Part shown: piece by piece, positions 22,601-57,952 of the stretch
Layout: the number at the start of each line of letters is the position of its first letter
How positions within the stretch are numbered: position 1 is the first letter of the stretch
Assembly: GCF_037042905.1 (NCBI RefSeq)
Contig: NC_087245.1
Location: 28,708,001 to 28,772,000 of the forward strand
Source: Lytechinus pictus
Taxonomy: Eukaryota
Reading direction: 5' to 3'
DNA: 64,000 nt
The notes under the pieces: model-generated
The model's database searches: none
What the model was told of the DNA's origin: nothing
What the model saw: only the letters and a program-made list of their open reading frames with translations
Translations under genes and position numbers: made by a program

Positions 22601-24177
22601 CTTATTGGTCTCTCAGCCCTCTTCAAGGTCCTGATGTGATTTTGCTGGAAGTTTTGTTTTTTAGTCTTATATGTAGTTCTTTCAGGATTTTTCATTGCCA
22701 TTCCACAGAGACCATAAATTTCAGTGATCTTGGAGACTGCCGAAAGCCCATGCCAATATTCAGCATGTCTTTGATCTTCAGTGGTCTCTATTCTGTGGAT
22801 AGGGGGCATTTAATAATGTAATATGAATGATGTTCATTTTGCAAATATATACCATGTATGTCTGCTCCGGTATTTAGCAATATATTCTTGGTATAGCACT
22901 GAGGAAGGAAACTTGTTCATACAAAGCTGATGCGTGGTTGCACAGAGTATAGGCCTCCTTTGGTCTGTGAAGGCCAAAGTTTATTAATCCTAAATAAAAC
23001 CTGTATTTCTATATGCTACTGATAATTAAGAGTCACCAAACATTTCAGATTACATTCATTCCCAAACACGGTCACTTCTGTATTTCCCTCCTGATTTTTT
23101 TTTTCTCAGTTTAGCTGTCAAATGCAGTATCATAGCCTGGAATATTTCTTGGGTTTAAACTTTTGAAAATAGATCATTTTAGTGAACGGATCCATGGCAA
23201 TTGCTCCCGCAACAATAGCTCCTACTAAGAATGCACACGTTAAGCAAAAGACAACCCTGAATGTCATAACTTATATTAGTACTTACTTACTTACTGCCTC
23301 CTGGCATGTAGGGCAGCAACAAAAGCTCTCCACTCCGGTCTGTCTTATGCCAGTCTCTGCAGTGGTCCCCATGCAGGTCTGTCGGAGGTTAGACATTTCG
23401 CCCTCCACGGTCTGTCGCCAGGTTTTCTTGGGTCGACCTCGTTTTCTCCTTCCTTCGGGGGTCCAATGCAGTGCTGTCCTTGTAATGTCATCCGCTTCTT
23501 TTCGTAATACATGCCCGATCCATCTTCACCTCCTTTTCATAAGTATGCCTTCCATACTCTCTTGTTGGCATCTTTCATATATTCCTTCATTTGTTATTGT
23601 GTTAGGCCAGAATATACAAAGTATATGCCTTTAAATTTGGGTATGGAAGCCTGACAGTCTCTTGAGGTCATGTCTTGACATCCTCCAGCATTCTGAATTT
23701 AAAACTGTTGAAAGAACGCAGCTCTGGTATATTTTAAGCTTAGTCTTTGCTCTATATTGTTGCGACCGCCATACATTGCTAAGTATACTAAATGCAGTTT
23801 TGGCTTTGTTGAGTCGGCTTTTAATCACTTATATTAACTTAATCATAGTCCTCACATGATTCTGAACCAAAATCGCATCATAACCCTCACCCTCAACTTA
23901 TATCTTGAGAAAAATTAGTGAAGTAGCAAAGGTTGTAAGAGCAAATGCTGCGTTACTCAGTGAACTCAGACCACTATGTTTCAGATTGATAACATATATA
24001 TTTCACTTTCTCATTGTACAGGATTTGCCAAACGCAGCCAATGCATCTGAAATCACAGAAAACCTGGGCTTGAAGTCACTGCATAATCGGAAATGGTTCA
24101 TCCAGTCAACTTGCGCTACATCTGGAGATGGTCTCTATGAAGGTCTGGATTGGTTGTCCAGAGAATTGAAGAATTAA
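19648..24177 (+). CDS. ARF1: ADP-ribosylation factor, class I (ARF1-like) paralog A; join(19648..19792,21443..21553,21995..22119,24022..24177), 178 aa
   Basis: Spliced [181 protein letters not shown]. It has Gly2 (myristoylation) and the G1 GLDAAGKT, G3 DVGGQ, G4 NKQD and G5 CAT motifs. All introns are GT-AG and in phase; the 111- and 125-nt internal exons match vertebrate ARF1 structure. Confidence 0.96.
20326..20912. mobile_element. Kolobok-like MITE (AGGACAAGTCCACCCC family) in an intron of gene A
   Basis: Long TIRs with TTAA on both sides; related copies at 16540, 25310 and a split copy at ~50279-52599. Confidence 0.85.
22154..22806. mobile_element. TIR element with GAAAGACCA internal repeats
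   Basis: CCCCATTCCA..GAGAGCAAGA inverted at ~22555-22590; related terminus at 22806. Confidence 0.55.
23279..23826 (-). mobile_element. 5'-truncated RTE-clade LINE (3' end of ORF)
   Basis: Minus strand [21 protein letters not shown]...[13 protein letters not shown]..., then RWIGHVLRK...[20 protein letters not shown]; (TAAG)n tail; 10-bp TSD ACTTATATTA (23269-78, 23827-36). Confidence 0.9.
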
Positions 24178-25309
24178 AGAGAGTTTTTGCTTCCTATAGC
24201 GTGGATACAATCAACTAGGTGTACAATGGACATAGCTAATGAGTCTAATGGCTCTTTGCCCGCTTTGTTCGACTAGGGTCACATACAGCAGACTGCCAAG
24301 TTCAACTCAAGTCACATTCTATTCACAATACACACAGGGTGCATTGAATCTATTGTTCATACTCACAAACACAATAGTGATGTGTGCATCGCATTGTACT
24401 GTGTACACACCAAGCTTTTCTTTACAATAAACCAATCAAAAGCTATTTTGAGCTGAAATAGCTTAGTCCGTGCAAACCCCTCTTCAGGTGGCACCTTGAA
24501 TTTAATGTGGCGCAGGAGTGATTCTGTCCATGGCGGGCAAAGAGTTAAATAGAACATCTACTCTGATATGAAGAACGTTTCCAGAACTAGAAGAAAATAG
24601 AGACGAATAGCAGAGTCACATTTTAAAGCTGATTCAGTTTAAGGAAAACCCTCCGATTTTTATTCATTTATCGAAGCTTTCATTTAAAATGCATTTTTAT
24701 TAGAATTTTCTGAGACTGTCGATGATCTGTCATATATTCACTTTTCTGCAGTTTATGTGGAAACCAATTTGATATCAGAGTGACTTCTATTTAAGGCAGT
24801 TTGGGTAGCGAAAAAGAAGAGTGGCACAAGACTGATAGGATGCTTTGTGTCCAAAACCAGAACATCCAAAATCAAGATCAGATTTGTTAGCAATCAATAT
24901 CTTTATCATGTGACCTAGCTTAATCACATTTCTTATGATTTACCTTTATCTGTTTCTTTTTAAGGCATTTAAAATGGATAAATTTCCAAAGTGCGTTAAA
25001 TGTATATTGTTTTTTTGTAAATTTTTATTATCAAATTATTAAGCTTCATGCTTGAAATTTATCCATCCTAGCGATGTAATAGTACCTAACAAGACATGAT
25101 ACTTTGTATGATTGTGATGTAAGTGATGGCAGTTGAAATTTTAGTCAAATGTCCTGCACTATGTGCTTGCAAAAACAAAACAACCCCCCCCCCAAAAAAA
25201 AAAACATCAGGAAAAACACTGGAAATATGCAGTTGGGGAAAACAATAATCAGGCATATTACAAATTGACCTAAAATTTATATCATGTGAAATATTTTAAA
25301 CTCATTTAA

Positions 25310-57600: not shown

Positions 57601-57952
57601 GAGAGAAGGTTGTGTTGAGTTGGTGAGTGGAGTTGTATAGCAAAAGAGAAGACTCAACGTTTCAGGCGGGTGACTGTCCATCTTCAGGAGTGAACATCAG
57701 ACTTGACATTATACATTATGGAGAAATCAAGGGTCTGTATCTGAAGACTATTAATTTGTTTCCTTTTCCTGTTTATTACTTCTACAGGATCTACCAAACG
57801 CAGCCACCGTTGGAGATATCACTGACAAACTTGGCTTGAATGGTTTACATAGTCGACGATGGTACATCCAGAGCACATGCGCTACATCAGGTGATGGTCT
57901 CTATGAAGGTCTGGATTGGCTGTCTAATGAATTAAAAAACACCAAAAAATAA
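54683..57952 (+). CDS. ARF1: ARF1-like paralog C; join(54683..54827,56277..56387,56803..56927,57788..57952), 181 aa
   Basis: [20 protein letters not shown].../[132 protein letters not shown]. Same exon structure, intact. Confidence 0.96.
57116..57556. mobile_element. Harbinger-like MITE in the last intron of gene C
   Basis: TAA|GCCCCTATTCCACTAT...ATAGTGGAATGGCCCC|TTA. Confidence 0.65.

Follow-up and report, generated by a model that had tools for sequence, protein, structure and literature searches.

Divergent back-face patches and a homogenised core in three tandem Arf1 genes of the sea urchin Lytechinus pictus

Why should neighbouring Arf genes that share a switch core differ so widely over one short segment of the opposite surface? 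The question arises from a window of 64,000 nucleotides of L. pictus DNA (the whole stretch analysed), in which an original prediction, made from the letters alone, saw near-frozen ARF paralogues with a hypervariable segment at residues 133-156 (hereafter the patch). It proposed a shared switch core with a swappable back surface, possibly under diversifying selection from copy-specific partners or pathogen effectors, as its best candidate for an undescribed system. What the window holds instead is an ordinary Arf gene family; it is not a new molecular system but a lineage-wide oddity of a known family, unreported in the literature searched.

Three tandem class I Arf genes

Motif scans and reading of the exon edges reveal a + strand tandem array of three genes, A, B and C. 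All have four coding exons that form an open frame, interrupted by GT-AG introns at matching positions (Table 1). The start originally given, 24022, is that of the last exon of A; the genes themselves begin earlier, A at 19648. The three proteins are letter-for-letter identical to public L. pictus records (P0121 for A, P0032 for B and P0154 for C), and that of B is also identical to the first half of L. variegatus record P0004. P0121, P0032 and P0154 match the Pfam Arf domain over its full length at 265-270 bits, against a curated cut-off of 22.3 (E-values of 7e-81 for A and 3e-79 for C). The hallmarks of the Arf family are Gly2, the P-loop, the switch I Thr, DxxGQ with the catalytic Gln, NKxD and the CAT motif, and A, B and C carry all of them. 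The last intron of B is spliced in 35 RNA reads with 25 different starts (sample X21, reads labelled as L. pictus), and a contig from a second organism, organism B, contains the spliced start of an A-type patch. An assembly artefact and pseudogenes were ruled out by the open frames, the matches to public protein records and the splicing of B in RNA. Judged by sequence, the array consists of intact class I Arf genes and forms an ordinary gene family.

Table 1. Coordinates of the three genes, their patches and the homogenised exon 1 tracts in the window
Feature	Position	Strand	Details
Arf1 paralogue A, 178 aa	19648..24177	+	coding exons 19648-19792, 21443-21553, 21995-22119, 24022-24177
Arf1 paralogue B, 181 aa	41443..44542	+	coding exons 41443-41587, 42737-42847, 43580-43704, 44378-44542
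Arf1 paralogue C, 181 aa	54683..57952	+	coding exons 54683-54827, 56277-56387, 56803-56927, 57788-57952
Patch of A, codons 133-156 (human Arf1 134-157)	24037..24108	+	residues identical in L. variegatus P0122
Patch of B, codons 133-156	44393..44464	+	same residues in L. variegatus P0004
Patch of C, codons 133-156	57803..57874	+	same residues in second half of P0004
Homogenised tract, exon 1 of A (codons 13-49)	19684..19792	+	identical runs between pairs
Exon 1 homogenised tract counterparts	B 41479-41587, C 54719-54827	+	

Arf1 is told from Arf4 by a distinct exon-intron structure (PMC8358228), and the four-coding-exon structure of A, B and C is common to three further genes, D, E and G, on contig C13. 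After the CAT motif, A, B and C have the Ser-Gly of class I and not Gln-Gly. In the genome's separate Arf4, on contig C3, the introns lie elsewhere and the signature is Gln-Gly, as it is in the Arf4 rows in the supplement of PMC8358228. The best solved-structure matches of exon 4 of B are ARF1 and ARF3. In all, we found at least four further class I-type genes, one Arf4 and one Arf6, in an assembly that may be incomplete. Three of the class I-type genes (D, E and F) form a tandem on contig C13, where G lies about 1 Mb off; the Arf6 is on contig C6. Exon-wise searches matched 14/22, 12/24, 16/24 and 12/19 candidates, and a crinoid Arf query matched 73/93. F, which is diverged throughout, was excluded from all counts, and Arf4 and Arf6, with their differing exons, were excluded from the codon work.

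Over residues 133-156, the original counts of 14/24 differences between A and B and 11/24 between A and C are exact, and B and C differ at 16/24. The description of the first 132 residues as near-frozen holds for A and B, which differ at 4/132, but not for C, which differs from each of them at 11/132. As had been noted, A, B and C do not vary in the NKQD motif or over residues 157-173. The proposal that the copies share a switch core while each has a back surface of its own is supported. We take the patch to run from helix 4 to strand 6 (human Arf1 numbers are local residue numbers plus 1). These labels agree with a passage in 10.1101/2023.12.19.572083, and the same helix is named 'helix 5' in 10.1101/2025.11.21.689788. 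Buried-type positions of the patch remain hydrophobic and polar positions vary in A, B, C and the Arfs that we fetched, burial being assigned from residue type and from the papers.

A homogenised core and its likely cause

The contrast between core and patch extends to silent sites. Among codons 13-86 that encode the same residue, silent differences number 3/70 for A and B, 5/68 for A and C and 4/68 for B and C, compared with 7/13, 6/16 and 7/11 among codons 129-156 (Fisher p of 4e-5, 0.005 and 3e-5, respectively, for two segments picked after seeing the data). Within the array, third positions diverge by 0-0.13 in codons 11-95 and by 0.56 in codons 131-145. In the exon 1 tract, pairs share identical runs of 101-110 nt, with 1-2 silent differences per 35 codons within the array and 18-20 against the C13 genes, and exon 2 of A, B and C is homogenised like exon 1. 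The longest runs free of silent differences are significant in 3/3 pairs from the window (permutation p of 0.0003-0.003) and in 0/12 other pairs.

The introns of A, B and C can be aligned only within approximately 15-90 bp of the exon edges, and the copies are therefore old. The unalignable introns, together with the near-saturated codons 1-12, rule out that the core is identical simply because the genes duplicated recently. In all nine comparisons of A, B and C with D, E and G, 33-37 of 67-70 codons in the 13-86 segment are silently different (7-8 of 69-70 within D, E and G), so that the core codons are free to vary; silent-site constraint in the core was ruled out because these same codons are saturated against D, E and G. 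Gene conversion, with tracts some 100-200 bp long, is likely the simplest cause of the DNA identity of the core. At the protein level, L. variegatus A carries A5Q and E104D, the residues of B and C, a hint at most of concerted change across species. The core protein is also under strong purifying selection of its own (omega of 0.011). Conversion would account for the freeze at the DNA level and not for the fast patch.

One could nevertheless suppose that the patch changes no faster than Arfs ordinarily do and looks hypervariable only as the rest has been homogenised, and high silent divergence in the patch beside a homogenised core is what such an artefact would give. However, comparisons of A, B and C with D, E and G show silent saturation throughout, and yet pN is 0-0.03 in the core and 0.37-0.54 in the patch. 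The 14/24 differences between A and B also exceed the 8/24 counted by eye between human ARF3 and ARF4, and Arf4, for which no tandem partner was found, still differs at 18/23 patch residues between urchin genera. We regard a pure artefact of conversion as nearly excluded.

The original prediction held that silent change equally high in the segment, with dN/dS below 1, would indicate simple escape from conversion. In form this is what we observed, with high silent change in the patch and a dN/dS of 0.47. This by itself does not decide against selection, because a divergence peak that includes silent change is also expected from selection against conversion (PMC3924837), and because the patch is likewise fast in the single-copy Arf4, which has no partner to convert with. 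In the red/green opsins, a divergence peak at exon 5 amid converted sequence marks selection that keeps the copies different (PMC3924837); accumulated divergence can also shut off conversion passively (PMC3728101). Like opsin exon 5 and copepod GOT1, A, B and C are old tandem duplicates with homogenised tracts and a divergence island common to orthologues, and the exon-limited conversion with unalignable introns matches that of GOT1Sd/Sr (PMC3728101). For the opsins, it is known which residues were selected and what they do, and conversion extends to the introns, whereas in A, B and C function is predicted and the introns are unalignable. Unlike both precedents, the urchin Arf island is fast between genera and in a single-copy relative as well.

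The patch across the family and between species

The statement that this segment is highly conserved in animal ARF1 holds in so far as nearly the same patch occurs in human Arf1 and in the Arf1 of amphioxus, acorn worm, annelid and sea anemone (PMC8358228 supplement), but family-wide the segment is variable. Among 101 fetched Arf domains, the patch is one of the two most variable stretches, at 0.82 bits per site, next to 0.90 for the helix 3 region and 0.11-0.19 for the switch core. In L. pictus, exon-wise and crinoid-Arf searches, which set a lower bound, found the usual animal Arf1 patch in none of the class I genes recovered nor in Arf4. A lies 9 residues from the majority patch, B 12, C 11 and D and E 14 each, and G has an extra residue. 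Of 139 distinct fetched patches from outside Lytechinus, 14 lie at least 9 residues from the usual patch and 4 at least 11, in a set chosen by likeness to A, B or C and so biased towards urchin forms. Patches of the A, B or C type were absent outside Lytechinus among the best 120 of 3617, 5484 and 6700 matches, a weak absence given that two of the searches scored 8000 candidates and one covered only proteins of up to 181 aa.

The supplement of PMC8358228, read by eye, lists three Arf1s and one Arf4 for S. purpuratus, none with the usual patch and none matching A, B or C. SpuArf1b differs from A, B and C at 10, 16 and 12 of 24 patch residues plus one insertion and shares features of helix 3 and the patch with A and C; it is likely the counterpart of the array, which has three copies in Lytechinus against this one in the S. 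purpuratus catalogue. By shared diagnostic residues, G and SpuArf1a are likely orthologues, and by eye they have identical switch cores with 11/24 patch differences and one indel. The most diverged patch is that of Arf4, single in both genera and lacking a tandem partner in our genome searches: by eye, 18/23 patch residues and 2 of about 79 core residues differ between Lytechinus and S. purpuratus, and the last-strand Trp is lost from Arf4 in both. Over the same segment, Arf6 differs at 2/24 positions between the genera and Arl19b at 2.

Among other echinoderms, the crinoid record P0110 and the sea star record P0015 are near the usual patch, and Diadema record P0280 lies 10 residues from it. 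Ciona Arf1a and Arf1b also lack the usual patch (PMC8358228 supplement), and its loss is therefore not unique to urchins. Arf1 duplicates readily (Vargova et al. 2021, PMC8358228), and tandem pairs with a near-identical switch core are common in marine animals, being present as fused gene models in corals, molluscs, a brachiopod, a nemertean, a sea star and sponges (P0005-P0018, P0038). The patches of those pairs differ by 0-8 residues, and 14/15 named animal double models in which both patches could be read keep one copy at most 4 residues from the usual patch, as no urchin copy found does. In the literature searched, which left most subscription papers outside, we found no paper on such a pattern of Arf expansion or selection in urchins or other echinoderms, and urchins go unmentioned in the main text of PMC8358228. 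A survey of sea urchin GTPase expansions from 2006 reportedly may already record an Arf expansion.

This distribution brings in the main rival to a reading in bursts, namely that a contact which held the back face of Arf1 and Arf4 was lost or loosened across the lineage, so that the surface now drifts in every Golgi Arf, diverged patches escape conversion passively and the copies remain functionally alike (kept for dosage or an expression split). Such a relaxation would fit several observations: the class I and II Arfs seen in two urchin genera, and Diadema P0280, all have a non-usual patch; the segment tolerates change family-wide; Arf4 has lost the last-strand Trp in both genera; and the patch omega is below 1. 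Drift predicts steady change, however, and this is not what we see between congeners. L. variegatus (P0122 for A, and the halves of the fused model P0004 for B and C) differs from A, B and C at 0/72 patch residues and at 9/468 elsewhere, and in the patch the orthologues (0/72) are thus closer to each other than the paralogues (11-16/24) are.

How much change should have been expected was gauged from the second organism. Its contigs on gene B, mostly non-coding, differ at 18/356 nt, 29/620 and 34-35/432 letters and a spliced contig at 3 letters in 264 coding nt, and the introns and 3' flank of B differ by about 6-8%. With 4-8% neutral divergence, 7-13 replacements would be expected in the three patches if they were neutral and 3-6 at the long-term rate, for which the probability of none is 0.002-0.045; at 6%, the figures are about 10 if neutral and 4.7 at the long-term rate, with a probability of none of 0.009. 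These values assume that the second organism is as distant as L. variegatus and apply the flanks of B to all three genes; for B alone, zero replacements at the long-term rate is non-significant (P of 0.12-0.35). In one other sample, X21, the differences listed for gene B include one in the patch, at 44395, and it is silent, which also speaks against ongoing drift. As far as the compared proteins tell, the patch is not diversifying between the two Lytechinus species.

Codon models of six paralogues give the patch an omega of 0.47, below 1 (p=0.008, M0), compared with 0.04 for residues 97-110 and the far lower value of the core. M2a assigns about 12% of sites in codons 128-156 a high omega, with the highest posteriors at 136, 151 and 146, and improves on M1a by 2dL of 4.75 (p=0.09); with six genes, saturated silent sites, a segment chosen afterwards and low power, these models make positive selection on the patch suggestive at most. 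Of the original prediction, an unusually fast segment is borne out in sea urchins; diversifying selection at the present day is not supported, given the absence of change between congeners, the dN/dS and the M2a test.

The same results bear on an episodic arms race, in which Golgi Arfs would be gripped at the back face by a parasite or bacterial factor. The host would escape by repeated change and by keeping several versions, the switch face not being free to change. An essential and very slow gene that is fast at one surface, in the single-copy Arf4 too, would suit this, as would the high-omega fraction in M2a and the mere 2 positions at which Arf6 and Arl19b differ in the segment between genera. 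Arf-requiring bacterial effectors do exist in marine Vibrio (PMC6731672). Against it stand the unchanged patch between congeners, the non-significant M2a comparison and the effectors themselves: the MARTX MCF effector, the one Arf-bound bacterial effector with a readable contact, binds the interswitch and switch 2, neither of which varies here, and Arf6 serves it as well (PMC6731672). We found no effector that binds the back face in the literature searched, and the available part of PMC10716152 leaves the Arf face unnamed. A pathogen effector as driver, as originally suggested, consequently found no support, and we consider an arms race unlikely, more so than relaxation.

The back face and a proposed division of labour

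In other Arfs, the patch has been tied to both switching and coat assembly. Work on back-to-front allostery in Arf1 and Arf6 names residues that lie in the patch; swapping residues 135-137 between Arf6 and Arf1 alters the rate of spontaneous switching, and H146 packs against W153 (10.1101/2025.11.21.689788). The back side that activates AP-1 consists of A136, A137 and W172 (PMC5540999, PMC6627992). In the AP-1 tubular coat, R149, H150, H146 and residues 133-139 take part in Arf1-Arf1 and Arf1-mu1 contacts (PMC9586487), and in Arf1 tubules the lattice contacts include R149, W153 and residue 154, with changes at R149 having moderate effects (10.64898/2026.01.22.700998, 10.1101/2023.12.19.572083). 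In COPI, no back-side contact of the AP-1 type is observed (PMC5482573). Across the allostery paper and the four lattice papers (PMC9586487, PMC5540999, 10.64898/2026.01.22.700998 and 10.1101/2023.12.19.572083), the named residues inside the patch are 135-137, 138, 146, 149, 150, 153, 154, 156 and 157. These results come from human, bovine or yeast proteins and are carried over to the urchin Arfs by analogy. An AP-1:Arf1 structure is said to have been described in a 2013 paper.

Human residues 135-137 read NAS, DAN and TVG in A, B and C, respectively; H146 is replaced by K, N and N, R149 corresponds to H, R and H, and W153 and W172 are unchanged. The top-scoring site of the codon models, 136, is human 137 and falls within the triplet that sets the switching rate. 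The lattice partner residues Y35, I49, R73, I74, L77, E115 and R117 are unchanged in A, B and C, and there is therefore no sign of co-adapted interfaces, a lack of co-change that again favours a surface released from constraint. Weighed with the unchanged congeners and the silent variant in B, such a release seems to us possible but doubtful.

Our preferred reading, to which we give about even odds (roughly 0.5), is that the patch changed in bursts and is now kept as it is in each copy for its own switching rate and its own contacts with coats and with other Arfs. The switch core of A, B and C would be held alike by gene conversion plus purifying selection, and, by analogy with mammalian and yeast work, GEFs, GAPs and coat subunits would be common to all copies, bound through the identical switch face. 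The back-face patch would have been altered in bursts and conserved in each copy afterwards. By the same analogy, how fast GDP is released spontaneously may depend on residues 134-136 (human 135-137) and on the neighbourhood of human H146 and W153, and lattice contacts of Arf with Arf and with AP-1 may be adjusted by the residues at human 137, 146, 149 and 150. If conversion overwrote one patch with another, this division of labour would be lost and the event selected against, leaving a divergence peak. Against this reading, the most diverged patch belongs to the single-copy Arf4, and specialisation among tandem copies is not enough to account for it.

More speculatively, constraint on the back face may have been lifted in urchins for every Golgi Arf (all Arf1 copies and Arf4, and not Arf6), with bursts of positive selection altering it, possibly to escape a parasite factor. 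Urchins may now live without a standard Arf1, each copy differently tuned on an effector face maintained by conversion; we think this broader picture improbable, if somewhat less so than an arms race by itself. Few eukaryotic proteins evolve as slowly as Arf1, and only recent work has linked its back face to control of the GDP/GTP switch and to tubular coat lattices. The genes described here provide, within a housekeeping family, a clean example of a divergence peak under probable gene conversion. An animal seemingly without the standard back face, and with several versions of it on an identical core, is a natural variant series for the back-face residues, and sea urchin embryos and cell lines make the testing of that series practical.

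Further Arf genes in the genome

The L. pictus genome holds a second group of class I-type Arf genes on contig C13, with D, E and F in tandem and G apart from them, as well as a single Arf4 on contig C3 (see table). Codons 13-86, the switch-core part, are homogenised among D, E and G. In F, the P-loop Asp is replaced by Gly, and switch I and switch II are also altered. The patch of Arf4 (the variable back-face segment, residues 133-156 of A, B and C) is 23 residues long and lacks the Trp found in all 107 distinct patches fetched; the same Trp is also missing from S. purpuratus Arf4.

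Coordinates of genes, residues and repeats (G000, this genome; C3, C8 and C13, its contigs; L008 and L055, stretches of its DNA)
Feature	Location	Arrangement
D, E, F	G000:C13:11456822-11523684	tandem
G	G000:C13:10440770-10444881	inverted, ~1 Mb from D/E/F
Arf4	L055 (G000:C3:27818500-27828000)	- strand
Gly61 and Tyr81 of C	window 56277-56387	
Near-copy of the end of C	L008:1419-1598 (G000:C8, near 28567100-28567290)	180 bp
Source of near-copy	window 57837-58016	last-exon end of C and 3' flank
Triplication	window ~29900-34600, between A and B	three tandem copies, spacing 1522 bp
Duplicate	window 13335-14903	spacing 1269 bp
16-bp tandem repeat	window 28412-28599 and 37282-37357	opposite orientations, ~8.7 kb between

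Core residues of C and a stray copy of its 3' end

Paralogue C carries Gly61 and Tyr81 in a core that is otherwise fixed, and Tyr81 is common to L. variegatus C, S. purpuratus Arf1b and the Diadema record P0280. The near-copy of its 3' end on contig C8 is 98.3% identical to its source and has short tandem repeats on both sides; it looks like a fragment picked up by a mobile element.

Repeats around the paralogues

The triplication is built on short, GCGAGC-rich repeats of one family, and its copies are 100% identical over the 300-nt pieces compared, as are those of the duplicate (300 nt compared). The 16-bp tandem repeat flanks the triplication on both sides, and this inverted pair may represent the ends of a mobile element.

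Fused public gene models

Adjacent Arf genes are often merged into one double-domain protein in public models (P0003, P0004, P0005-P0018), and such models show that Arf1 genes lie in tandem arrays in corals, bivalves, a brachiopod, a nemertean, a sea star and a sponge.
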